Of a DNA stretch of 64,000 nt, positions 31,605 through 63,825 are shown one piece after another. Where the stretch lies: positions 64,001-128,000 of IMG/VR virus record IMGVR_UViG_3300048838_001106; one strand, 5' to 3'. The stretch comes from a virus. Position numbers and translations under genes: made by a program. The notes under the pieces were generated by a model. That model worked only from the letters and a program-made list of their open reading frames with translations. It was not told the origin of the DNA and did not search any database. The first letter of the stretch is position 1, and each line of letters opens with the position of its first letter.

Positions 31605-31633
31605 AGGAGGTAATTCCACCTCCTCTTTTTTTT
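31605..31633 (+). terminator. Intrinsic terminator
   Basis: AGGAGGT-AATTCC-ACCTCCT followed by T8. Confidence 0.75.
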
Positions 31634-31703: not shown

Positions 31704-32534
31704 ATGTACAATCTTGGTTTTGCAACCGTTATGAAGACAGCAGGGCTATCTAAGACGGCTGTCACCCTGGATCAACTACGAAAGGCGACCAGTGCTCTGC
31801 AGAAAAACACGACTGTTGTCCGCAGAAGTCTCATGCCCGATGATATTTCTGGGGGATACTCGGGCGTAATTAGGCCCAGGAACCACCTCCCAGAAACCTT
31901 TGGATTGGGACCAAATACGCTGGGAAAAACCAAAGACAAAGACCTAGAAAGTAAGTTACGACAGATATATGGGGATATGTTGGACTGGTATCCCGAGGAA
32001 GATGTGGATCAGGCGCTCCAGGACGCTCTTGCAAGAACCAAGGCCGTGCACCAGCCATTTATGGCAGGCGGTAGGTCTACTATTTATCAGGGAGGAAGCC
32101 CTGCTATATGGATGAAGCACCTTGTCGACAGTGGCGATTTTCCATCCCCTCAAGCGCAAGGATTCCAGAACATGCTTAAATCCGGACCAGGACAGGAGGC
32201 ATTTAATCGGTCTACCCTGCTACATGAAGGGTCCGAAATCGGTAAGCAATTTGGTAAAAGGCTGTTTGAATCTCATTTGTCTACAAGGCCCATGCTCCAG
32301 GATATGAATATCGCAGCTACACTGCGCGGCCCAGGTAGCGAAGCTGCAGGAGCCATCAAAGACCTGCGTGCACCAGAAGTGGCGTCGTTGAACAAGTACG
32401 TTCCGGGCCTGGAGCGTCTAAATCTCGGAGAAAATCGAATTTCTCGCCACGCCCAGAAGCGCATCCAGCAATCTTACGAGCGCAGCCTCGACAGAGAAGG
32501 CGTGAAGGGTATTCCCGGTATTAACGCGCCTTGA
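31704..32534 (+). CDS. KxA-motif protein with HExxE cargo (putative virion-packaged protein)
   Basis: GAGGA RBS; N-terminus MYNLGFATVMKTAGLSKTA; LLHEGSE...SH. Confidence 0.7.
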   Translation: MYNLGFATVMKTAGLSKTAVTLDQLRKATSALQKNTTVVRRSLMPDDISGGYSGVIRPRNHLPETFGLGPNTLGKTKDKDLESKLRQIYGDMLDWYPEEDVDQALQDALARTKAVHQPFMAGGRSTIYQGGSPAIWMKHLVDSGDFPSPQAQGFQNMLKSGPGQEAFNRSTLLHEGSEIGKQFGKRLFESHLSTRPMLQDMNIAATLRGPGSEAAGAIKDLRAPEVASLNKYVPGLERLNLGENRISRHAQKRIQQSYERSLDREGVKGIPGINAP

Positions 32535-32541
32535 CCTGCTT

Positions 32542-33195
32542 TCACATCACCTTCAAGTACTTCGGCGCGATAATCCCAGTAGGCGTGTGAATCGACGCAT
32601 GCGGTACATTTGCCGCGTAGTACCCTTCGTTGTCAGGGTCCTCATAATGCTTCCACAATTCCTCTGGTGTCCGAGCTTGCAGCTCTCGAAGCTCAGCGTC
32701 CTCTAAGAACCGACGCCGCGTGTCTCCGCGACCATCCGGGGTCAGCTCAATCCCGAAGGCACGCGTCTCGGGCTCATCACGCATAAGTGCATCCATGTCG
32801 ACCTGGATTTTTGCGTAATCGTTCTGGCGAAGCGGATGCGCGTCTGCCAGTTGAACCGTGTCCGGAATATCAGAGAACATGACATTCGGGCCTTCAAAGA
32901 CGTCCTTCTCGTAGCCGGCTTGCGTACCCTGAATCGCGGACAGCAAGCGCCCTGTGCGCGTGCCTTTTGCCAGGGCCACGGCCTTCAGCAGCTCAGGGTT
33001 GGCAACCAGCCCTTTGTTCCCCGCAAGGCCGTGCGTCATAATCGAGTCTACCGAGGCAGGCGGCGCGTAGTGATAGACAGGAGCAAGGGGTTGAGGTGTT
33101 GGAGGTGTGACAACAGCAGGCGCAGGCGCAGGAACAACAGCGTCGAGCTCAGCAGTTTTGAGGACCAGGTTGTAGCCTACAGCATAGCTATTCAT
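32542..33195 (-). CDS. KxA-motif protein with ADP-ribosyltransferase-like start
   Basis: MNSYAVGYNLVLKTA, Pro linker, then VYHYAP...SIMTHGL. Confidence 0.65.
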   Translation of the reverse strand: MNSYAVGYNLVLKTAELDAVVPAPAPAVVTPPTPQPLAPVYHYAPPASVDSIMTHGLAGNKGLVANPELLKAVALAKGTRTGRLLSAIQGTQAGYEKDVFEGPNVMFSDIPDTVQLADAHPLRQNDYAKIQVDMDALMRDEPETRAFGIELTPDGRGDTRRRFLEDAELRELQARTPEELWKHYEDPDNEGYYAANVPHASIHTPTGIIAPKYLKVM

Positions 33196-34100
33196 CGTTC
33201 AAAGTACCCCAGACCAAGTCTGTCGCGGAGAGCCTGGCCTTCTTCTGCAGTGATATAGAAGCGTCCACCGGGCTGTACTGCGTCTTTGAACTGCGTGCGA
33301 ATCAAGCGGCGCGCTTCGTTCGCCTCGTCACTTATGTTCGGATCATGTTGCATATTTTTAATGTTGTCAAAATACGCGATGCCCGGCCTTTTCACCGTGC
33401 CTATATCGTCTACCATTGGAGAGGCCCAGCTGTTCCCAACCCCTTTTTGCCATGCACGGTCAATCGCCACCTCCGCATTCCATAAGAGGTCTGGGTCGCG
33501 TGCTATGCGATCAGACGTCTCTCGCTCTATTACATGGTTAGGCGACAGTGGCGTATCGAAAGGTAAGGTGGTCTCGGCATGAAAAGGCCGCGTTCGTCCT
33601 CCGAACCCGTCATAACTACTTTGGGTGGGTGCTCCTGTCCAAAGATCCATGTTTTGAAGTTTCCACTTATCTGTGTCGGCTTTTGAGGCGTCCACGTGGG
33701 TGGGGACGTATTCAGGATTTGCGCTGGTAAAGCGTGTTATTTGATGGCCTCGAGGACCACCAACCACATCTTGAACTCTGAGCCCAACCGGCACTTCCTC
33801 ACCCAACACACCTGGAATGACTTGCTTCGAAGGGAGTATTGGGAACGCATGACGCCAGCCTTTGCCTGCCAAAGCACCCAAGGCAGCTGTAGCCGCGCCG
33901 CCTACAACAGGCTTCGTCCAGTCGGGTTTTCGGTCGTTGACGAGCGTGTCTATTCCGAAACTTCCAGCGCCTATCGCACCGCCAGCAGCCCCAAGCCCGA
34001 TCGCATTCCGCGTAGCAGGGTGTAAGTCGTGCCACTTACTGAGGTCGAGCTTCGCAATCTTCATCAAGTGGGCGTACCCAGATTCGTAGTGTCTATTCAT
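33192..34100 (-). CDS. KxA-motif protein with glycine-zipper hairpin and unknown C-terminal domain
   Basis: MNRHYESGYAHLMKIA; IGLGAAGGAIGAG; GGAATAALGALAG. Confidence 0.7.
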   Translation of the reverse strand: MNRHYESGYAHLMKIAKLDLSKWHDLHPATRNAIGLGAAGGAIGAGSFGIDTLVNDRKPDWTKPVVGGAATAALGALAGKGWRHAFPILPSKQVIPGVLGEEVPVGLRVQDVVGGPRGHQITRFTSANPEYVPTHVDASKADTDKWKLQNMDLWTGAPTQSSYDGFGGRTRPFHAETTLPFDTPLSPNHVIERETSDRIARDPDLLWNAEVAIDRAWQKGVGNSWASPMVDDIGTVKRPGIAYFDNIKNMQHDPNISDEANEARRLIRTQFKDAVQPGGRFYITAEEGQALRDRLGLGYFER

Positions 34101-34104
34101 AATC

Positions 34105-35529
34105 TCAAAACTCCGGCTTCTTGCCTTTCGATTTGGAAAAGTCTTCCATCAATTCCAGGCCGCCATCTTTTGTTGGCCGCCAGCGTTTGGTCAAAGTAGG
34201 TCTTAGAGCACCTTCGGTGACTACTTTTTCGTAGTAGGGGGAGGTGTCAACGTGGGTGGGGTCTAACATCTTCGACGAGGCAATTTCCTCAGGAGACAGG
34301 TATCGAGAGTCCCTGGCTACGTGCGCGTGCCAGGGACTTTGCTCTTTAGGGGGGACTTTCGCAGGGTCAAACTCGAACACAGACGCTCTATTATGTGTGC
34401 CTTCGGCGTATTGCCGGGCCACGTCTGGATGCCCTGTCACCCACGTAGGATCTTTAGGCTCTACAACCTGGTACGGACTCTGAGCTCTGTATGCACGAGA
34501 TGCCGGGTCGAACATACTGTGTGACTTAAAAATCTCACCCGTCGAATAATTCAACGTTTGAATATCTGGATCTATGGGAGAGACGGGTGTAGCTCTCGTG
34601 TTCATGATGTATTTTCTCAGGCGAGAGCGCGCAGAATCCGCTTCGAGTTTCGCCTCCCTTGCAGCAGCAAATATCGCGGCCATATCTTCTCGAGGCATTC
34701 TCTGAGGATTTCTTACAGCGTTGTGCACCGTGTCGAGCACAGGATTGAGCGCCGAAGAGGACGTCCGAGACTCACTAACCCGGAGTTTGTCCGAGAGAGT
34801 TGCCAGCGCCTCAGCTGGAAACGCGGATAGTACATCTCCGGAATCTTGCAAATAAGAATCTACCAGGAAGGAGATGTCTTGTGCCTTCTCTTCTGGGGAC
34901 ATGACGCGCTCTAGGGTCCGCACAACATCGTGCGGCGACGCATCGTCTGGCAACGCCCTCAGATCGCGCTGAGCGTCAGGGTGCGCAAAACTAAACAACC
35001 TGGCTTGCTGAAGATTAGCAGGATCTGAGGATTGCCTAATCCACGAGGCTGGAACAGGGATGTTCTCAGCCCCAAGAATGCCAACAGCCTCTTCTGGCTT
35101 GAGAGGCCGATCGTGTAGCAGCTTATTGACACTGTATTGGATATTAGGGTTCAGGGCCTCGCCAGCAGACGCGTGAAGATGGTCTTCCCGAAGCGGGTTC
35201 CGCGGCAAGAAAGACTTCAAATACTTCTCAGGCTCATAAGTTTTAGACAATATGATCTGTTCAATGTCTTCAGACACGGGCAATCTTCGGGCAGTGTCAG
35301 CTAAAGGCGAGAACCGCGAATCTTGCGAACTTGTCCATTCGCGAATCGCAGATGGAACGCCTTCCCAGTCGCCCGTGCGTCTCCCCCACTGCAATCTCTC
35401 TGCAGACACAGGTGCATTGGGGTGCTCGATGTCCAGGAGCTTCTTCAAGAGCCTTGTGTTGATTGCCGTCTTTTCCAGGCCGGCCACTTTGACCACCGAA
35501 TTGTATCCATCGATATAACTTGACCGCAT
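34105..35529 (-). CDS. KxA-motif protein, C-terminal domain possibly ART-like
   Basis: MRSSYIDGYNSVVKVAGLEKTA; WVTGHPDVARQYA...YEKV. Confidence 0.7.
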   Translation of the reverse strand: MRSSYIDGYNSVVKVAGLEKTAINTRLLKKLLDIEHPNAPVSAERLQWGRRTGDWEGVPSAIREWTSSQDSRFSPLADTARRLPVSEDIEQIILSKTYEPEKYLKSFLPRNPLREDHLHASAGEALNPNIQYSVNKLLHDRPLKPEEAVGILGAENIPVPASWIRQSSDPANLQQARLFSFAHPDAQRDLRALPDDASPHDVVRTLERVMSPEEKAQDISFLVDSYLQDSGDVLSAFPAEALATLSDKLRVSESRTSSSALNPVLDTVHNAVRNPQRMPREDMAAIFAAAREAKLEADSARSRLRKYIMNTRATPVSPIDPDIQTLNYSTGEIFKSHSMFDPASRAYRAQSPYQVVEPKDPTWVTGHPDVARQYAEGTHNRASVFEFDPAKVPPKEQSPWHAHVARDSRYLSPEEIASSKMLDPTHVDTSPYYEKVVTEGALRPTLTKRWRPTKDGGLELMEDFSKSKGKKPEF

Positions 35530-36626
35530 CAAGTCCTCCTGGAAGGCCGCTGCACGGCGGTGGCAACCGCAGGCAGTGCCTCGGTGTGCGCGGCATACGG
35601 CGCTGGCACTGTTTCAGCGCGCGGACCTTGTCTGTGCACTTTCTTTACTGGTATCTCTCCTCGATGCATGTAAGCACGCATGTCCGATGCTGAGCTGGAC
35701 AGCCTTGTGAGCGGGGTGGGGCCGCCCCACTGTGCGCGCTGCAAGTTCGGGAAGTAGCCAGATTTTGGATTAGCCGCGCCCTCCTCTACGTGGATACCAT
35801 GACCCGTTTGCGGAGAATACACGCCATCCGACGGGCGCGTCGGTATGAAGTCCACAACCTTTGATCTTCCGTCCGCTGTTACAGCAATGTTGTTGCCGTG
35901 ACTAGACCGCTGCCATGTGTCAGCGAAGTCCTCGCTGCGAAATCCTGGGTGCGCCCGGTCTAGAGACCTACGAAGCGCCGCCTCGTCATAGTGCGTGTTG
36001 CCGCCTGTCTGTGCGTGAGGCACGTACTCCGTGTAGTGAGTTCGATACTCCTTGCCGGTGACTGGACTGGTGACCGTCTTTGCGCCGTACAGCTCTGTAA
36101 GAGGATTGTCCTCCTTGGCGAAGCGGCGTTGCGATGCCTGCATGATTTGTTCTTTTCGCCTCACGCCCTTAGGAGAGTAGATGGCCGAGTCCGGGTTGTA
36201 CGTCTTGCGTGCGACCAGTTGACCTTTGTGAGCCACTAGATCTGCGATGCCTTCACCGCCAGTTCCCAGGTGACCGACGTATTCCCTGGGAGAGTAGCCT
36301 CGCTGCTGCATGGTAGCTAGAAGCTGGTTCGCCTTGTCAGGAGAGGCACCTGCCTGGATGCGGTCAGGAGCAAGGCGAGTCTTTTTTAGAGGCGTTTGTG
36401 GTGCGGTGGCGCCAGGAAACGCCGCAGCAGTCTCCGCGTACGCTGAAGGCTGTGTTTCGGCTACGGTCGAAGCGTACCTAGTCGGCGCTGCTTTGTTGAC
36501 ATAAGATGGCTCCGTGCTCTTTAACAGAGACCGCAATATCTTTGTCTCTCGCCTGGCCGCTTCTTTTTCGAGCAGCCCTGCAGCAGCGTATACAGCGTCC
36601 ATGCCGTCGAAGTAGTTTCTGGTCAT
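35529..36626 (-). CDS. KxA-motif protein with protein-kinase-like domain
   Basis: MTRNYFDGMDAVYAAAGLLEKEA; LGTGGEG, VARK, TEYV, D...HGNNI, VVDF. Confidence 0.7.
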   Translation of the reverse strand: MTRNYFDGMDAVYAAAGLLEKEAARRETKILRSLLKSTEPSYVNKAAPTRYASTVAETQPSAYAETAAAFPGATAPQTPLKKTRLAPDRIQAGASPDKANQLLATMQQRGYSPREYVGHLGTGGEGIADLVAHKGQLVARKTYNPDSAIYSPKGVRRKEQIMQASQRRFAKEDNPLTELYGAKTVTSPVTGKEYRTHYTEYVPHAQTGGNTHYDEAALRRSLDRAHPGFRSEDFADTWQRSSHGNNIAVTADGRSKVVDFIPTRPSDGVYSPQTGHGIHVEEGAANPKSGYFPNLQRAQWGGPTPLTRLSSSASDMRAYMHRGEIPVKKVHRQGPRAETVPAPYAAHTEALPAVATAVQRPSRRT

Positions 36627-37166
36627 TTACTTGGTCCGGGAGTACAAATAGGTAGCAGCTGCACCAGGAGCACCGACGTAGAGGGCCGCGTCAGACACGG
36701 ACACGCCTTTTCTGGCCGTGTCTTTTAAGTCACGGAGCATCTTAGATCCCTTCGCCCCAACACTTTTTGCTGGCAGCCTGGCGACCTTCATTATGGTGTT
36801 GTAGCCATCACTGTAGCTGCTTTCTTTGCTGAAATGGTCGTGCAGTTTGTTTACGCCGTAAACTGTGGCGCCTATACCACCCAAGATTCCTGCGCCGGCG
36901 AGTCTTCGCCCCTTCATGGTCATCTTCCTGTTAGCGATGGCCTTGTGCCCGGCGTCTTCCATCGGAATGCCCTCGTCCACCATTTTCCTGATGGCCCTGG
37001 ACGAGTCCTTGTCGCGCTTGGTGTCAACTGTCATGTTGAGGTACTTTAAGCCAGCCGCATTTGCTGCCGTGCCCCCAATGGCCGCCGCCGCACCAGGAGG
37101 CAAAGCAGATTCTTCTTGGTACGTGGCATATGCTGGCGCAGGGCCGTAGCCCAATTTTGTTGTCAT
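36627..37166 (-). CDS. Glycine-zipper protein with internal KxA motif
   Basis: Internal SYSDGYNTIMKVA; hydrophobic Gly/Ala segments. Confidence 0.65.
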   Translation of the reverse strand: MTTKLGYGPAPAYATYQEESALPPGAAAAIGGTAANAAGLKYLNMTVDTKRDKDSSRAIRKMVDEGIPMEDAGHKAIANRKMTMKGRRLAGAGILGGIGATVYGVNKLHDHFSKESSYSDGYNTIMKVARLPAKSVGAKGSKMLRDLKDTARKGVSVSDAALYVGAPGAAATYLYSRTK

Positions 37167-37183
37167 CGTGGTTCTCGCCGTGG

Positions 37184-37675
37184 TTAGATCTCGTCAGCTG
37201 CCTGTAATCCTGCCCAGATACCGTGACGCGCCGCGCCTTCACCCGCTACACCACCTAGCAGACCTGCTATTACGTTAGGGCTTAGCGGGATTTTGACATT
37301 TCGAATTTTAATTTCGTCTGGAAGATTCCCACGCAGAGCATGTCTGGCGATGGCCGACACCACTTGATCGGTGCCTTCTCCGGCGACTTCGCCGCCGATT
37401 GCAGCCCCAAGTTGGTACTTCAAGTCCAGATCTCTGGTGCCGTACATAGCCCCCAGTCCAGGCGCCATGCGCGCACCAACGTTAAACGGGGACAGCTTTC
37501 TGCCAGTTAGGGCGTGCGCTGCTTCTAGAGGGAACTGCGCATAGAAGCCAGCGGACCGGCCAGCCACAGCGTCTTCGGTAGCTTTGTCCAAATCAGGGCC
37601 GAAAGGCCAGGCGGCTGTTTTTGTTGGGAGGCCCGCGTGCGCCAGCACCAGATTGAACCCTGTATGATACGTCAC
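37184..37675 (-). CDS. KxA-motif glycine-rich hydrophobic protein
   Basis: GTG start MTYHTGFNLVLAHAGLPTKTA; GGAG RBS. Confidence 0.65.
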   Translation of the reverse strand: MTYHTGFNLVLAHAGLPTKTAAWPFGPDLDKATEDAVAGRSAGFYAQFPLEAAHALTGRKLSPFNVGARMAPGLGAMYGTRDLDLKYQLGAAIGGEVAGEGTDQVVSAIARHALRGNLPDEIKIRNVKIPLSPNVIAGLLGGVAGEGAARHGIWAGLQAADEI

Positions 37676-38616: not shown

Positions 38617-38925
38617 ATGTGGATTATGCAGATAGGCATCTTTGTGCTTGGTGCCGCCGCAGGCGCGCTAATCGTACTGCGACACACGATGCGGATGGAA
38701 AGAGAAACAGCAGCTGCCGTGGAGAGGTTGTCAGCCATCGCCAGAGGAGCAATTCGAAGAGCAGACTTTTATGGGAGAAGCTGGGGGCGCATGGCCAGGA
38801 AACTACCTCCCGACGAGTGTATGGCCGAGATGATGACGTACTATGATGACGCGCCACCGGACGTCAGGGCTGAAATAGACAACGTGCTGTGCAACGCGTG
38901 GCCGAGCCGAGAAAAACCGAATTGA
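38617..38925 (+). CDS. Membrane-anchored hypothetical protein
   Basis: N-terminal TM helix; GAGG RBS. Confidence 0.6.
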   Translation: MWIMQIGIFVLGAAAGALIVLRHTMRMERETAAAVERLSAIARGAIRRADFYGRSWGRMARKLPPDECMAEMMTYYDDAPPDVRAEIDNVLCNAWPSREKPN

Positions 38926-39377
38926 TAGAGAAAATATTAGTCATAGTGCTGGCCATGAATGTTCAATGGGGGTCAGTCGATGTGCCGGCGTTACCAGAAA
39001 TGACAGTTCAACACACCGGACTAGCCTCATGGTACGGCAGCGGAGTGAAAAACGACTACGGGCTGCACGGAAGTATAACTGCAACCGGTGAGCCGTTTGA
39101 TCCGTCAAAAAAAACGTGCGCTATGCGGGCGGCTCCATTGCGTAGAGCCGTGTTGGTAAGGCTGACACGCACGGGACACAAGACATGGTGCCTTGTTAAT
39201 GACCGTGGACCTTACGGGGCCTTAGACGATGAGGGCCTGTGGATTACCAAATTTTCTAGAGAGGACCCTGGAGAGTGGCGCGGCGTTATCGATCTCAGTC
39301 GGGCAACTGCCGTGGCTTTAGGGTTTGACTTTCAAAGAGGACTCGAGCAAGTCGAGATTCTATACACGACACACTGA
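38922..39377 (+). CDS. RlpA-like double-psi beta-barrel protein (lytic transglycosylase family)
   Basis: GLASWYG, TATGEPFD, VNDRGPY, IDLS..A..LG. Confidence 0.85.
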   Translation: MIEKILVIVLAMNVQWGSVDVPALPEMTVQHTGLASWYGSGVKNDYGLHGSITATGEPFDPSKKTCAMRAAPLRRAVLVRLTRTGHKTWCLVNDRGPYGALDDEGLWITKFSREDPGEWRGVIDLSRATAVALGFDFQRGLEQVEILYTTH

Positions 39378-39686: not shown

Positions 39687-40004
39687 ATGCTAACGCTGAC
39701 AAGGAAAGAAGGGCAGTGTATTATCCTGCATGCCCCGATGGAGACCGTAATAATCACATTGAAAAGCACCAGGAGAGGACAGGCACGCCTGGGTGTGCTG
39801 GCGCCGAAATACGTCGACATTCATCGCGATGACACTGACGAGTTCCTCCCGCCCAACAGAATCTACACGTCAATTGAGCACTGCCCGAGGTGCGGTGGCA
39901 CGCACAGGTCAGTCGAGATAACAGTCCTGAAGCAGAGCTCCTCCAGCGCTGCGCGTCAATTCTTCACCTCGTGTCCTGAAACCGGACACCCTGTCATCCT
40001 ATGA
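39687..40004 (+). CDS. csrA: CsrA-like carbon storage regulator with C-terminal Zn-ribbon extension
   Basis: MLTLTRKEGQ.I...RLGV.AP..V.IHR; then CPRC...CP. Confidence 0.75.
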   Translation: MLTLTRKEGQCIILHAPMETVIITLKSTRRGQARLGVLAPKYVDIHRDDTDEFLPPNRIYTSIEHCPRCGGTHRSVEITVLKQSSSSAARQFFTSCPETGHPVIL

Positions 40005-41250: not shown

Positions 41251-41484
41251 ATGACAGATGAAGAAGTGCAGTTCTTAATTAGCGTTGGGTTCACAGAAGT
41301 GGGCCGGACAAACTGTTATGTGTGCGATTCATTACAAACCGGTCGCGTGGTTTACATGGAATACGATCGCCGACACAAACGCTGGACACTGACCGAGATA
41401 GACGAGGCGCGCAATGTCGTTACGCGCACAGAGCGAAGCAACAATGCAGTTGCTCTGTGGCAAGACTTACTGTTTAATCCGTGA
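41251..41484 (+). CDS. Hypothetical protein
   Basis: 77 aa ORF. Confidence 0.5.
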   Translation: MTDEEVQFLISVGFTEVGRTNCYVCDSLQTGRVVYMEYDRRHKRWTLTEIDEARNVVTRTERSNNAVALWQDLLFNP

Positions 41485-41530
41485 CAACTTTTTCCGCCGT
41501 GCGCGGCATAAACTAACCAAAGGGATAGCC

Positions 41531-42817
41531 ATGCTATCATCACCCGCCGAGGTGTTGAACGAACAACAACTCGATGTATTACTGGAATTGGACAAGTTCG
41601 CTAAAGCAGACAGCCCGCATAGGGTCTTCGGCCTATTTGGGTACGCAGGCACTGGAAAATCCACAGTGCTTAGCTTCTTTGGACAGGCAGCGTCTGCCAG
41701 GAAACACAGCATAGTGTTCGCAGCGCCCACTCACAAAGCCGTGTCTGTGCTGCAGCACATGGCTGACCCCGAAGTCATAGCGCCTCAGCACAACAACTTT
41801 CAGACAGTGGCTAAGCTGCTGAACATGAAAGCAGTAGTAGATGAAGAAGGGCACCGTCAATTCAGGCCGGTTGTCGATCGATGGACCGACGCAAGGATAT
41901 CTAAGTACGACATGGTCATCATTGACGAGTGCTCGATGATCAACAAAGACGTGTACCAGTGGCTCATGGAAGCCCAGGAGGCATTAGGGTTTCGTATCAT
42001 CTTCGTAGGAGACCCGCTGCAACTCCCGCCAGTCCGAGAAGAAAACCTAAACAACGGGCGCTCGCTGGCGTTTGATGTCGAAAAGCAGGTTACGCTGACG
42101 CAGGTAGAGAGGTTTTCTGGTGACATCGCAAAAGTCGTGTCTCAGGTGCGGCGATGCATTGGGGAGGGCGTGGCGCCAGTGTTCAAGAACAGCGAGACCA
42201 CGATTCGCCATGGCGGGTCATCGTCCTTCCTGCACGCATACCTTGAATATGCGGATACCGGACAGATCATCGCATACCGAAACGAGATGGTTGTTAATGC
42301 CAACAACTGGGTTAGGAAGAAGATATTCGGAGAAAACGCGCCCGCGTTTGTACCTGGAGAGCGTATCGTGGCGGCGGACACCACGCTGCACTGGCATGTG
42401 CACCAGGAGTTCAAGGTGAGTGACGCCGAGCGCGTCAAGCACGACAAGACAGGATTGATGTGTTGGCGTCTGAAGTTCGAAGGCAGCTTCATGGAGGTCT
42501 ACACTATGGACAAGGAGCAGAAACCAGCACTGAAAGCCCGGCTAGATGCCATAAAGGCAGACATCAACACCATCAAGACCAACAATCCAAAAGCGTCGGT
42601 AGCCGCTAAGTGGGATGAGTTCTACACACTGAAGGACCTGTATCCAGAGTTCAGACCTGGCTACGCGCAGACTATTCACGCTTCACAGGGGTCTACGTAC
42701 AAACAGGTCTTTGTGATGGAAAGAGACATTTCCAGGATTAAACGCGACAAGGACTTCTATGGGAAAATGCTGTACGTTGCGTATTCAAGAGCATCTCAAA
42801 TGGTCCACGTTTTGTGA
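41531..42817 (+). CDS. dda: Dda/RecD-like SF1B DNA helicase
   Basis: GYAGTGKST, APTHKA, DECSM, GDPLQLPPV, TIHASQGSTY, YVAYSRA. Confidence 0.9.
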   Translation: MLSSPAEVLNEQQLDVLLELDKFAKADSPHRVFGLFGYAGTGKSTVLSFFGQAASARKHSIVFAAPTHKAVSVLQHMADPEVIAPQHNNFQTVAKLLNMKAVVDEEGHRQFRPVVDRWTDARISKYDMVIIDECSMINKDVYQWLMEAQEALGFRIIFVGDPLQLPPVREENLNNGRSLAFDVEKQVTLTQVERFSGDIAKVVSQVRRCIGEGVAPVFKNSETTIRHGGSSSFLHAYLEYADTGQIIAYRNEMVVNANNWVRKKIFGENAPAFVPGERIVAADTTLHWHVHQEFKVSDAERVKHDKTGLMCWRLKFEGSFMEVYTMDKEQKPALKARLDAIKADINTIKTNNPKASVAAKWDEFYTLKDLYPEFRPGYAQTIHASQGSTYKQVFVMERDISRIKRDKDFYGKMLYVAYSRASQMVHVL

Positions 42818-52929: not shown

Positions 52930-54261
52930 TCAGCTCAGTTCAAAATCGCTGTACATATCAGGCGCTAGTGTTGTGTCTTCTTCAGGGGCAAAATCAGTAA
53001 AGTCAAAACCCGCTGACAGACTTGAATACATGCCGACAGACAATTCAACACACTCCACAGCATCACTAACGATAAAAAAATCAAGAGTGACCTCATCACC
53101 CGATTCAAGATCTCCAAGCACTGTCAATGTTGTTCCGGCCAATTCCCAATCTGTTTTGTCGATTCGAACACCGTTCACATACACTGCAACATAACCAGTG
53201 TAAGGTGTGTCGCTAAGATCAAAAGTCTTAGGGCCACCCGCATAAACAGCATTGTCTTCGACAGGAACAAGGTTGACTCCATCAGTAACCTGAATTGCAA
53301 TGACCCATTGAGCCGAATCACCATCGTCATACCAGATGAACGTATTGCCTGATTCATCATCGAACCAAAGCTGGCCGGGTTCAGGGTCAAGAGGTGGTGT
53401 TCCAGCGATAGGGACAAGAGCCTGTGCCTCAAGGGACTCAAGCCACTCAACCTCGGTACCAATGAAGCCATTTGCAACCGCAACTTCGTACGCTGAGTCA
53501 CCGTCTGCACCAGCGGGGCCAGTAGCACCCGTAGCACCAGTAGCCCCCGTAGCCCCAGTAGCACCAGTAGCCCCCGTAGCACCCACCAATGAGTCGAGCC
53601 AGTCCAGCTCAGTACCGACAAAGCCATTTGCAACCGCAACTTCGTACGCTGAGTCTCCGTCTGCACCAGCAGCCCCCGTAGCCCCCGTAGCCCCGGTAGC
53701 ACCCGTAGCCCCAGTGGCACCCACCAATGAGTTGAGCCAATCCAGCTCAGTACCGACAAAGCCATTTGCAACCGCAACTTCGTACGCTGAGTCTCCGTCT
53801 GCACCAGCGGGGCCAGTACCCCCGCCTCCTCCAGATGACAATAAGGCCCAGCCAGACCCATCAAACACTAGCACAGACGAGCCGTAGTCAGTGCTTATGC
53901 TGAGCGTGCTCTGTCCATCTATCAGGTTAGACCCACCGGACACGGTTATGTTGTGTGTTTCTCCCGCCCCTCCGACATCTTTTACTACAACATACTGGCC
54001 TTCAACAGCGTCGTCAGGAAGTACTACGCTAGAGGCAGCAGCGATTGTGGCCGTATCTACGAACACAAACACGTCTGTTAGGCCGACGGTGTAAGGCGTC
54101 TCAGCAACAACAGTGCTTTGCACGAGGTCCCCGATTTTCAGGGATTCGATGCCTCTGTACAGCTCACGCGCTACTAGCGTCCAGTTTCTGCGGTCAGGAA
54201 TTCCACGGCTGCTTAGAGCGGCGGAGATGTTCATTCCGATGGTCTTGTAATCGAGTGGCAT
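52930..54261 (-). CDS. Collagen-like tail fibre protein
   Basis: (GAT)n triplets with three SAYEVAVANGFxGTExxWLxSL repeats; PxxGQLWFD module. Confidence 0.85.
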   Translation of the reverse strand: MPLDYKTIGMNISAALSSRGIPDRRNWTLVARELYRGIESLKIGDLVQSTVVAETPYTVGLTDVFVFVDTATIAAASSVVLPDDAVEGQYVVVKDVGGAGETHNITVSGGSNLIDGQSTLSISTDYGSSVLVFDGSGWALLSSGGGGGTGPAGADGDSAYEVAVANGFVGTELDWLNSLVGATGATGATGATGATGAAGADGDSAYEVAVANGFVGTELDWLDSLVGATGATGATGATGATGATGATGPAGADGDSAYEVAVANGFIGTEVEWLESLEAQALVPIAGTPPLDPEPGQLWFDDESGNTFIWYDDGDSAQWVIAIQVTDGVNLVPVEDNAVYAGGPKTFDLSDTPYTGYVAVYVNGVRIDKTDWELAGTTLTVLGDLESGDEVTLDFFIVSDAVECVELSVGMYSSLSAGFDFTDFAPEEDTTLAPDMYSDFELS

Positions 54262-54348
54262 GTCTAACACCTTCTCTCGTAGTATACGCGACAATAGCGT
54301 CGTGCGATACATTGACGCGACATACTGTTGTGGCGTAATGTCTACCAC

Positions 54349-61209: not shown

Positions 61210-63825
61210 TTAAGCTACAAGGCGCATTGTTACGCGATTAAGTGGAGCAGGAAGAGTGAGGTCCATCATCACCTCTACATGGTCTCTCTGCCCTTCCAAT
61301 ACTTTTATGCTGGCCACACGACCTGCGATCAGCGGTGCGCCGATGCGCGGCATATCCATGCGTTGCAACTGACGAGACCCTCCGTCCAGCGCTTCTTTCA
61401 TCAACCCGATTGTCGAGTCAGTCACGTTGTATCGGCCGATGAAATCGTCAACAATGTCTTTGTAGAAGCGGCTGACATAGTCAAAGTTTTTGACCATGCT
61501 GAATTCGCCCGACTCTAGCGTTGAAACGTCAGTGGTGAGCTGGTGCACACAGTATGGCAGTGTGTTTGGCGTGTTCTGTGCGAACAGATAAATTCCAGAG
61601 TTGGACAGCGTTGTCAGCTGCGCCTCACTGAAGTAGCGAGAGGAGTGTCTGATCTCCGAAATGCCAGCAATGCCAAGATTCGTAAAGCCTTGTTGTGGCG
61701 GCAAGCCCGCTGTCATCGCGCCGACAACAACAGCCATGTAGTAGCCGGGCAGGAAAGACTGCGTGCCGGTAGCGTTGTTCTGCACGCCAGACACCTTTAC
61801 CTGGTCAGGCCACACAGCCAGTACTCTGCTCGAGCTGATAGACTCAGCGATGCTAATGAGCTCAGACACCTGTCCTGGCTTGTCAAGCGTTCGAATAACG
61901 CGATAAGAGATGCCATCCTCGGACCCATAGTCGTCCTGCACAACGTCAGCGCCTACAGCCAGACGCACCTGGTTGTTCGACAACACCGCTGCGATAGGAT
62001 ACGTGAAAGTAAGAGTGGAGTAGTCATCTGCGGTCAGGACTGTAGGAGCAAGAGTCACTTCCAGCAGGTCACCTACAACCACACCGGAGTCCAGGAACGT
62101 ACCAACCGAGTCTATCACGATGTGTCGTGTGCCGGTGATAAGCAGAGTTCCCCCTACGTCGTACAGTACAGGCTCCTTGAATTTCGCCGACACAGTGTCA
62201 TTAGCGGCCCAGATAACAGGCTCTGAGAGGGTGTACTCCATGAAACCCACGCCACCAGCGCTGATAGACTCCACAAAGAACAGGTTGTCTCCACGGCTGC
62301 TAAGCCCGTCGTTGGCTACGTCAGCAAAGGTCAATTCTATTATTTTGAACTCGTGTGCAGGGTCGTAATCAGCGTCAGGAACTGTCACAACGCCAGGAGC
62401 AACTATAGCCACTGTAGCTGCAGCTATTTCTATTGCGCCGAAGCTTGTCGAGGGCCGGTCGATCCACCAAGTGTTCCCGCCAGCACCGAACCACGTCTCA
62501 CCGGTACCAATTGGTGCGGCAGTAGCAAGCCCTGTTAGTCCGTCCGTGGGACCAGTAAGCAACAGATACTCCGGCACGTTAACGTCCGCACCGTACTGCA
62601 CGAACACATCCCCGGCCAACACTGTTGACGTGTTTACGCCTACGTCTACAACGTAGTTGCTCAATGTTGCATCGTGCGTCGGCTCAGCGGTAGAGGCGTT
62701 AACGATGGTTTTTGTCACAGGCAACTGCCCAAGGTTTCCAATAAGTGATTTGTACTGCGACACTTCTGGAATGGCTGAGCCCTCAACAACAGTCTTCAGG
62801 GCTGCGATTACGGACAGGTCTTCTGTAAGAGGAACTAGAGCGTAGATGTCTTTGTAAGACTCTGTCTCTGCAGCCATCGCCTGGTATGCTTGCAGCCTGT
62901 CCAGGTCGCCATTCAGGTTGTCTCCGGTTATGCCGAAGTAGCTTATAGAACTGGTCGTGTTTTGCAGAGCAAGGTGTAGTGCCACAGCCAGAGGATTCCG
63001 TTCGTCAATTTTCCCGACGCTGGACTCGATTAGTCGCGCGTCACTTATCTCGCCTACAAGAGCCAGGTCCTGGCGCAGAGACTTGTACGCGAAATACATT
63101 TCGCCATACATGACTGTGGCAGCGGTGGTGGTACCAGGAAGCGTGACTGTGTGGTTGCCAAGGACTGTAATCTGGTTGCCAGACACAACAATGTTGTCAG
63201 GACTGGTAGTTTCGACATGCGTCAGTCGCCGCTCGACTCGGTATTTTAGCCCAGTGAACGACGCGCCTACATAAGGCACACCGTGAGCGTCCAGTCCGTC
63301 CTCGGCATACGCTGTAGACACAACGATATTTGTAGTGTCCACAGAGACTACAACACGCGTCACGACAGTTCCTGCATCGTCGGTGACCAGGATGTCTCCA
63401 GGCAACACGCCCGCCGCTTCAAAGTCAGTTGCGCTAGAAAACGTGTGCTCCATGTTAATCGTGTTGTCATAAGCGCCGCCTTCACCAGCACTTCCTGGCA
63501 CTAGAACGTAAGCCTCACTGAAGAACAACTTGACGGAGGATGCGTCCAACACAGCGCCCAAAACGTTGCCAGGAGCGTCGGACAAGACACTTGCAGTGGC
63601 ACCTTCGACATACGGGTACACAGAGGCTTCGCCGCCTATGATGGCTGCCTGCACGTTAAACTTCGTGCCATACTCGCCCCCTGAGGCTGCTGCAGCGTCA
63701 CCAGGAGAGTCCATAAAGTGGTACGCGGGGCCAGCAATCAGAGTAACCAGGTCCGGCGTAGCAGCGGTGAAGTTCTGCTGTGCAAATTCTTGATATACGA
63801 GTACGAGCGGTCGTTGTGCAGCCAT
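61210..63825 (-). CDS. Tail sheath protein
   Basis: N-terminal RP.V.V.QE; C-terminal PQQGFTN, HQLTTD...E.S.VKNFDY, P.P.N; 871 aa. Confidence 0.85.
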   Translation of the reverse strand: MAAQRPLVLVYQEFAQQNFTAATPDLVTLIAGPAYHFMDSPGDAAAASGGEYGTKFNVQAAIIGGEASVYPYVEGATASVLSDAPGNVLGAVLDASSVKLFFSEAYVLVPGSAGEGGAYDNTINMEHTFSSATDFEAAGVLPGDILVTDDAGTVVTRVVVSVDTTNIVVSTAYAEDGLDAHGVPYVGASFTGLKYRVERRLTHVETTSPDNIVVSGNQITVLGNHTVTLPGTTTAATVMYGEMYFAYKSLRQDLALVGEISDARLIESSVGKIDERNPLAVALHLALQNTTSSISYFGITGDNLNGDLDRLQAYQAMAAETESYKDIYALVPLTEDLSVIAALKTVVEGSAIPEVSQYKSLIGNLGQLPVTKTIVNASTAEPTHDATLSNYVVDVGVNTSTVLAGDVFVQYGADVNVPEYLLLTGPTDGLTGLATAAPIGTGETWFGAGGNTWWIDRPSTSFGAIEIAAATVAIVAPGVVTVPDADYDPAHEFKIIELTFADVANDGLSSRGDNLFFVESISAGGVGFMEYTLSEPVIWAANDTVSAKFKEPVLYDVGGTLLITGTRHIVIDSVGTFLDSGVVVGDLLEVTLAPTVLTADDYSTLTFTYPIAAVLSNNQVRLAVGADVVQDDYGSEDGISYRVIRTLDKPGQVSELISIAESISSSRVLAVWPDQVKVSGVQNNATGTQSFLPGYYMAVVVGAMTAGLPPQQGFTNLGIAGISEIRHSSRYFSEAQLTTLSNSGIYLFAQNTPNTLPYCVHQLTTDVSTLESGEFSMVKNFDYVSRFYKDIVDDFIGRYNVTDSTIGLMKEALDGGSRQLQRMDMPRIGAPLIAGRVASIKVLEGQRDHVEVMMDLTLPAPLNRVTMRLVA

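Follow-up and report, generated by a model that had tools for sequence, protein, structure and literature searches.

Why do seven proteins with little else in common carry the same short peptide? The question is raised by a cassette of genes at positions 31704-37675 of the window, i.e., the 64,000-nucleotide stretch analyzed here, which corresponds to bases 64001-128000 of one 156,269-bp IMG/VR virus record (95% complete according to CheckV). The phage belongs to a clade related to the cultured Salmonella phage Arash and encodes its own multisubunit RNA polymerase and sigma factor. The peptide, hereafter the tag, follows the consensus Y-x-x-G-[YFM]-x-x-h-h-K-x-A(-G-L-x-K-T-A), comprises ~15 residues and has Lys-x-Ala (K-x-A) at its end. 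An original prediction, made from the window alone, saw in it a capsid-targeting or cleavage tag with which a jumbo phage would load a changing set of effectors into its head. At 156 kb the genome is not that of a jumbo phage; the tag itself is best read from the sequence comparisons, with moderate confidence, as a head-targeting propeptide that is clipped at K-x-A and loads swappable enzymes into the head.

The tag and its carriers

The cassette comprises seven tightly packed open reading frames (ORFs), and a check of these ORFs bears out both their extent and the peptides quoted in the original prediction, the tag being N-terminal in six proteins and internal in one (F). Gene A converges on the minus-strand operon G-F-E-D-C-B, where the spacing between neighboring genes is only -4 to 17 nt:

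31704-32534, plus strand: gene A, 276 aa; tag at residues 1-19 (nt 31704-31760), reading M-Y-N-L-G-F-...-K-T-A-G-L-S-K-T-A; cargo with a conserved L-H-E-G-S-E motif
32542-33195, minus strand: gene B, 217 aa; tag at residues 1-15 (nt 33151-33195); behind it a Pro/Ala linker and a domain without assigned fold
33192-34100, minus strand: gene C, 302 aa; tag at residues 1-16 (nt 34053-34100); a hydrophobic, glycine-rich stretch (residues 29-54) comes next, then a domain without assigned family; its stop and the gene B start overlap by 4 nt, as in an operon
34105-35529, minus strand: gene D, 474 aa; tag plus G-L-E-K-T-A at residues 1-22 (nt 35464-35529)
35529-36626, minus strand: gene E, 365 aa; degenerate tag with L-L-E-K-E-A at residues 1-23 (nt 36558-36626)
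36627-37166, minus strand: gene F, 179 aa; internal tag at residues 117-129 (nt 36780-36818), with segments rich in small residues (Gly/Ala) on both sides
37184-37675, minus strand: gene G, 163 aa, first gene of the operon, GTG start with GGAG 9 nt upstream; tag plus P-T-K-T-A at residues 1-21 (nt 37613-37675); hydrophobic Gly/Ala-rich C-terminal segment

When the 156,269-bp genome was translated in all six frames, a regular expression for the motif matched eight times, always in long ORFs, namely the seven cassette genes and one ORF at genome 46866-47639; in 1000 shuffles of protein residues it matched 0.025 times on average and never more than once. The predicted enrichment is thus present, its size being only indicative, since the expression was derived from the same data. 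A 22-column tag profile (A1) found 14 places genome-wide, all of them real ORFs, and nothing else; 13 of these proteins have the tag 0-7 residues past their start, and only F has it internally. The tag therefore stands on at least 14-15 proteins in two arrays, a set larger than the cassette.

All-against-all BLASTP of the seven cassette proteins disclosed no similarity past the tag, with the exception of A and D, which share ~30 further residues (E 4e-4); the claim that nothing is shared beyond the motif holds with this one reservation, and a short N-terminal peptide is common to otherwise unrelated proteins. The conserved tag residues are written with differing synonymous codons (third-position identity 0.31, versus 0.53 at positions 1 and 2), and the 30 nt upstream of the tagged genes are only 0.28 identical, so that selection evidently acts on the tag peptide, which is probably helical, and not on DNA or RNA. 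A nucleotide-level element, such as a shared 5' RNA or a recombination block, was rejected on the same codon evidence.

The second array (array 1) lies outside the window at L001:5938-12927 (genome 41,937-48,926, minus strand), between the baseplate hub gene and the genes of an M23 peptidase and a gp25-like (wedge) protein. Its eight genes, designated I, J, H, K, L, M, N, and O, each bear the tag or are led by K-x-A; they include:

L001:5938-6459, minus strand: protein O, tagged
L001:6440-6883, minus strand: protein N, tagged
L001:8178-8948, minus strand: protein L, tagged
L001:8960-10858 (genome 44,959-46,857), minus strand: protein K, 632 aa
L001:12673-12927, minus strand: protein I, tagged

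Proteins O, N, L, and I display a common C-terminal motif, a Gly-rich stretch followed by Y-G-M-x-D-A-D-T...N...L-G-T-D-F-x-T-x-S-[RK]; the protein nearest to O in the relative G013 (see below) adjoins the sheath gene.

Protein K links the tagged set to a virion component of Arash. It is built as G-M-E-K-T-A, a domain resembling ADP-ribosyltransferases (ARTs), G-M-H-K-R-S, and a sigma factor (Sigma70_r3, E 9.5e-5). The ART-like part and D are paralogous (BLASTP, E 2e-17), and the sigma part shares 31% identity with Arash gp10 (E 1e-29). Arash gp10 was detected in virions with 100% coverage, together with RNA polymerase β and β' (PMC10585845), in a preparation in which RNA polymerase β was the most abundant protein and which listed 116 proteins, its purity being uncertain (PMC10585845). 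A packaged virion RNA polymerase with its sigma factor is shown for Arash only.

Lys-x-Ala sites, the head protease, and the scaffold-like protein

The head module lies past the end of the window and comprises a scaffold-like protein besides:

L002:5686-6591: capsid protein
L002:9517-11496, minus strand: 659-aa protease
L002:14789-17296, minus strand: 835-aa portal-like protein, in whose C-terminal third many successive M-[MQ]-D-P-S repeats precede Q-M repeats

Comparison of K-x-A counts with the shuffle expectation gave:

Head-module proteins: 61 observed, 22.4 expected
Scaffold-like protein, K[TVE]A only: 9 observed, 0.34 expected
57 scaffold homologues: 601 observed, 164 expected (~3.7-fold over)
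Tagged proteins, residue 51 to end: 4 observed, 16.9 expected (P 2e-4)
Seven window proteins alone: 1 observed, 10.2 expected (P 4e-4)
Tail, baseplate, and fibre proteins: 28 observed, 37.3 expected
Plus-strand proteins: 100 observed, 92 expected

Enrichment in proteins that would be degraded and avoidance in those that would survive is the signature expected of a protease site, and the distribution argues for one; in particular, avoidance in the cargo bodies argues that the cargo meets the head protease, and, being almost without K-x-A, these bodies would survive it. The enrichment extends to Arash, whose scaffold-like gp223 and gp225 contain 8 and 7 K-x-A (3.1 and 1.7 expected). Among the scaffold homologues K-T-A forms conserved islands amid variable stretches. 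Moreover, all 80 relatives and Arash retain K-[ETQ]-A at residues ~28-30 of the capsid protein, and an invariant K-K-V-A marks the end of the protease domain. The peptide coverage of the Arash capsid protein, 86.6%, is compatible with loss of ~29 N-terminal residues and proves nothing (PMC10585845).

The protease gene matches a head maturation protease PHROG (E 2e-6), placing a gp21-family prohead protease in the head module. Its N-terminal ~237 residues contain invariant His, His-His, and Ser-Met-Gly positions, and the AlphaFold2 (AF2) model of this domain, with a predicted local distance difference test score (pLDDT) of 73, has T4 gp21 (5jbl_A) as its best match (Z 10.2, root-mean-square deviation (rmsd) 3.2 Å over 138 residues), followed by herpesvirus proteases at Z 6.8 (varicella-zoster virus) and 5.0. 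According to the model the phage thus encodes a protease of the T4 gp21 fold. A full structural scan was needed to reveal the match, Foldseek having placed gp21 11th, below spurious helical matches, and a profile of the domain gave no true match among PDB sequences. In the relatives G006, G009, and G012 and at the loci L046, L059, L063, L067, L076, L079, and L087 the protease gene displays an insertion of ~350-380 residues, which splits the gp21-like fold at the position matching residue 164 of the protease domain described here.

The capsid and scaffold proteins had been singled out as further places to look for the motif, and K-x-A occurs in both. Beyond K-x-A, the scaffold-like family has a conserved C-terminal element, [AES]-[YF]-x-x-G-[YW]-N-D-T-V-x-x-I-H-K-T-A-S, which occupies the same alignment column in 43 of the 57 homologues and is exemplified by S-Y-I-Q-G-Y-N-D-T-V in one scaffold against S-Y-I-D-G-Y-N-S-V-V in the D tag. 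The best match of the tag profile exceeds the shuffled 95th percentile in 68% of the scaffold homologues, and almost all of the 25 top-scoring matches listed fall on this element. The likeness is suggestive of a tag that imitates the scaffold element. A wider proposal, which we hold tentatively and would not yet call probable, is that the tag copies the coat/core-binding element of the scaffold and that the Arash-related clade runs a code of scaffold mimicry plus K-x-A, in which ~15 residues would load any protein, a gp21-fold protease with new Lys-x-Ala specificity would release it, the cargo would evolve under site avoidance, and each lineage would re-tune the tag together with its receptor.

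Short and probably helical, as many docking peptides are, the tag might instead dock to another intracellular partner (chaperone, membrane, phage RNA polymerase, or secretion route), with K-x-A as a binding motif and the tagged proteins absent from virions. Many of these proteins contain hydrophobic Gly/Ala-rich segments, and their packaging is itself presumed, both of which suit such docking; it is nevertheless an unlikely account, as it leaves unexplained (i) the ~3.7-fold excess of K-x-A in scaffold-like proteins, (ii) K-x-A at the capsid N-terminus and the protease-domain end, together with its avoidance in cargo, and (iii) K-x-A at the domain joints of polyproteins, described next.

Relatives, module joints, and cargo

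A search with the capsid protein returned 127 related IMG/VR contigs at 61-75% identity, the capsid protein of Arash being 45% identical. The closest relative, G013, is syntenic (capsid protein 75% identical), and at least nine of its ORFs start with M-x-P-[FY]-E-x-G-Y-x-x-F-M-K-L-A, most of them in tandem at the array-1 locus, between the hub gene and the sigma, M23, and gp25-like genes. None of the G013 tagged cargos shows BLAST similarity to any cargo of the genome studied here. In G006, G009, and G012, which are more distant, a drifted tag, A-Y-x-x-G-x-x-A-A-L-x-[KR]-F-G-V-K-x-A, occurs on several ORFs, each of which starts a few residues upstream of it. These versions, found by an unfiltered local search with hidden Markov models (HMMs), indicate that the tag is uniform inside one genome and drifts among lineages while the cargo turns over. 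Profile A1 at E<=0.01 matched neither Arash nor 20 relatives, which reflects a limit of sensitivity, since the unfiltered search did match relatives. As a DNA pattern, the G013-type tag gave 8 matches on the G013 contig, 1 in a sibling, and at most 1 elsewhere in IMG/VR (about chance), and the D-type tag, as a strict pattern, 0 matches in IMG/VR. Likewise, neither the cassette nor D had a match among INPHARED phages by BLASTN or TBLASTN, and a search of IMG/VR with D for related loci found none.

The gene neighborhood bears on where tagged proteins might travel. Array 1 and most G013 tagged genes lie directly between the baseplate hub and the M23/gp25-like wedge genes, and several tagged proteins are small and membrane-type, as penetration helpers would be; loading into the tail or baseplate (the tube lumen or under the hub), in the manner of the payload leaders of extracellular contractile injection systems (eCIS) or effectors on the spike of type VI secretion systems (T6SS), would suit both facts. 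We consider such loading quite unlikely. K-x-A, with which the tag closes, is in excess in head-module proteins and neutral in those of the tail, its avoidance in cargo bodies is sensible only if a head protease is met, the tagged or K-x-A-delimited proteins include a sigma factor, which should travel with the virion RNA polymerase, and the window cassette does not adjoin tail genes.

Homologues of the cassette proteins place K-x-A exactly at module joints, both between tag and cargo (P0009, P0025, and P0064) and between the domains of polyproteins (P0004, P0006, P0022, and P0061). The A homologues P0064-P0068 all join their cargo at K-x-A|V-[TS]-L, and the sequence before this joint varies, comprising the same tag, other leaders (P0066, P0067), or only M-M-R-K-I-A (P0068). 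The B homologue P0061 (73% identity) displays the tag, a D-G-R-H-R segment (ParB-like by eye), an A-A-K-T-A joint, and the B domain, and the single homologue of E, P0002 (33% identity), starts with a variant tag, A-Y-R-A-G-V-E-A-A-I-E-K-F-A-A. The domain family of D, K, and J has 57 representatives among 1.84 billion proteins by domain profile; some members start with the tag plus G-L-E-K-[TV]-A, the D homologues P0009, P0025, P0033, and P0054 having the same tag, and its polyproteins contain K-x-A-I-G-Q-R-Q joints between domains, e.g., between a 2H-phosphoesterase-like domain (by eye) and one or two copies of the ART-like module. The sigma fusions obey the same joint rule, with G-M-E-K-T-A and G-M-H-K-R-S in this genome and V-E-K-T-S in G013, where the N-terminal partner domain of the sigma factor contains a Nudix-box motif (by eye). 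Because orthologous cargos sit behind the same, drifted, or other leaders, the tag is, on these alignments, portable between cargos. At G013 88,237-89,448 (minus strand; L109:8237-9448) one frame contains a 2H-phosphoesterase-like domain (two H-x-T-L, by eye), T-E-K-E-A, a Met-led tag, and a further domain, and may be a polyprotein whose tag is internal, as in F, or else two genes in one frame.

Some tagged proteins are indeed related: K is a true paralogue of D, one C-terminal motif recurs in L, N, O, and I, and A and D share ~30 residues after the tag. That the whole set descends from one old paralogous family, diverged everywhere except at the N-terminus, is nevertheless very improbable, given that (i) tagged proteins range from 84 to 632 aa, (ii) the ART-fold domain of D has no BLASTP counterpart in the other six cassette proteins, (iii) the same cargo stands behind different leaders (E/P0002; A/P0066-P0068), (iv) an extra domain separates tag and cargo in the pair B/P0061, and (v) the tag fronts unrelated cargos in G013. 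The cargos thus very probably do not form one homologous family, in keeping with the original prediction.

Among the four cargo types proposed there (kinase-like, ART-like, HExxE-type, and glycine-zipper), only the ART-like one, in D alone, is confirmed by fold prediction. The C-terminal domain of D (residues ~330-474) is modeled with an ART fold (AF2, pLDDT 83), and all top Foldseek and VIA matches are ARTs, with Z 6.5 for TreX, 6.4 for Tpt1, and 6.0 for PltA, scores that are moderate (best E 0.017; Z 6.5, rmsd 3.4 Å over 98 residues). In an alignment of 30 sequences, one Tyr and one Glu (Y-E-K-V) are invariant and [YW]-R-G is mostly conserved. The kinase-like motifs of E (a G-T-G-G-E-G loop, V-A-R-K, H-G-N-N, and V-V-D-F) and the HExxE-type motif of A are visible by eye; E has no Pfam match at E<=1 and no kinase-type PDB sequence match, and Pfam and PHROGs searches of A are without match. 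Across the cassette, Pfam and PHROGs scans of all seven proteins yielded nothing usable, and PDB sequence searches of B, D, and E nothing relevant. As for the glycine-zipper or membrane-active helpers, what stands is the presence of hydrophobic small-residue-rich (Gly/Ala) segments in C, F, and G.

Gene A is the sole tagged gene on the plus strand. Just 5' of it, a terminator-like GC hairpin with a T-run (31605-31632, plus strand) ends the upstream plus-strand operon, so that gene A probably has its own promoter. The sequence TGATAA occurs on the minus strand at genome 42,915, 124,343, 127,860, and 135,590, 33-38 nt 5' of four structural-gene starts (N, a 253-aa protein, the sheath, and a 121-aa head protein), and may be a late-promoter element; it is absent before the cassette and before gene A, and a sigma-70 promoter scan stayed at background level. 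The phage has a contractile tail, and other genes of the window include:

38889-39377, plus strand: likeness to an RlpA/3D-type lytic transglycosylase domain, by eye
39687-40004, plus strand: likeness to a CsrA-type RNA-binding regulator, by eye
41414-42817, plus strand: Dda-like helicase
52930-54348, minus strand: collagen-like fibre
61210-63825, minus strand: sheath-like protein

The proposed route and known systems

A head-targeting propeptide would work as follows. The tagged proteins would be made late in infection with the tag at their N-terminus, and the tag, resembling the scaffold C-terminal Y-x-x-G-Y-N...K-T-A element, would bring them into the prohead core via the contacts of the scaffold. 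The gp21-fold prohead protease would then cut after K-x-A, so that the scaffold is degraded, the capsid N-terminus trimmed, and the tag removed, while the cargo bodies, nearly without K-x-A, would survive and remain inside the head, alongside the DNA and the virion RNA polymerase, until they enter the host at infection. Behind the tag, the cargo genes (ART-fold, kinase-like, and small membrane-type proteins) would be replaced quickly. Prohead binding, K-x-A cleavage, packaging, and injection are what we infer from the K-x-A distribution, the gp21-fold protease, the module joints, the cargo turnover, and the orthologue of the sigma factor in the Arash virion, all of which fit the capsid-targeting or cleavage tag first proposed and support it in part.

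Several observations weigh against such a propeptide. The presence of the tagged proteins in virions and the processing of their N-termini are likewise inferred, and we know of no precedent for K-x-A specificity, the known gp21-family proteases cutting after Glu. Array 1 lies inside the baseplate module, a position that also fits tail loading; no late promoter common to the cassette and the head genes was found 5' of the cassette; and the RNA polymerase subunits are not K-x-A-depleted, so that avoidance is not universal among the presumed head contents. Arash has no match to the tag profile, and its sigma factor lacks such a leader. As to the scaffold element, its hhalign alignment with the tag (P 1.2e-4, probability 55%) is short at 11 columns, and in the reverse search with a scaffold-element HMM against the proteomes tagged proteins were among the top matches, none of them significant.

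Proteins injected by phages act first in infection, in anti-defence, host take-over, or as RNA polymerases, and are hard to spot by sequence. If the proposal is true, genomes of a large uncultured clade could be read for their injected repertoire by means of the tag and cut-site code, with cargo modules that comprise an ART fold, kinase-like, Nudix-like, 2H-phosphoesterase-like, and ParB-like domains (by eye), and a sigma factor. The wider reading of scaffold mimicry, if true, would also provide a sequence-defined, portable, and probably engineerable packaging signal, together with a large hidden repertoire of injected effectors. Since the capsid and scaffold-like proteins of cultured Arash follow the same K-x-A pattern, the protease code is directly testable.

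Among known systems, polymorphic toxins show the same constant-N, variable-C pattern, and to this extent the polymorphic-toxin-like arrangement first suggested stands; their cognate downstream immunity gene has no counterpart here, the ORF layout showing no immunity-like genes, and no room for any, between the cassette cargo genes. In eCIS (the Photorhabdus virulence cassette (PVC) and similar) and T6SS, the payload genes are diverse, lie in clusters by baseplate or spike genes, and are marked by an N-terminal signal. These particles have no capsid or head protease, whereas here the tag motif is shared with head proteins and avoided in cargo, and the genome, encoding capsid, portal-like, protease, and scaffold-like proteins, falls outside this capsid-less class.

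The phiKZ-like phages come closer, in that a gp21-type protease (SPN3US gp245, phiKZ gp175) processes many head and ejection proteins and a multisubunit RNA polymerase is part of the virion (PMC10052503). In SPN3US, the N-terminal propeptides of two substrates are short, with 20 and 24 residues (PMC10052503), but phiKZ-like propeptides mostly span 111-254 residues and are not a common portable tag, and the proteases cut after A-x-E or S/A/G-x-E, in contrast to the presumed K-x-A.

The nearest parallel is the capsid-targeting sequence (CTS) of T4, the only part common to diverse internal proteins, which is processed by gp21 (PMC3012670). As in the phage described here, the CTS of IPI-III and Alt is a short N-terminal peptide on diverse, fast-evolving proteins and ends in a recognition motif of the head protease, as the tag ends in the presumed site K-x-A; the gp21 fold is matched by the protease model (Z 10.2), and the T4 cargo includes the ART Alt (PMC3012670), as the tagged cargo includes the ART-fold protein D. 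The differences comprise (i) the sequence, the CTS having no relation to Y-x-x-G-Y-N-x-V-x-K-x-A and thus giving no sign of homology; (ii) the cut site, (L/I)-x-E in T4 and presumably K-x-A here; (iii) the number of tagged proteins, much larger here (14-15 per genome, in two arrays); (iv) the placement of the tag, which can be internal and resembles a scaffold-like element, with K-x-A also joining polyprotein domains; and (v) the phage itself, a member of a different clade known here from sequence and models alone. With such a code, the CTS principle would reach a distant lineage whose protease has another specificity, and imitation of a scaffold element offers a possible mechanism for a step that the T4 work left unresolved. 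A literature search found no published description of this tag system; the capsid-targeting principle is known from T4, and what is most likely new is the sequence of the tag and the presumed cut site of the protease.

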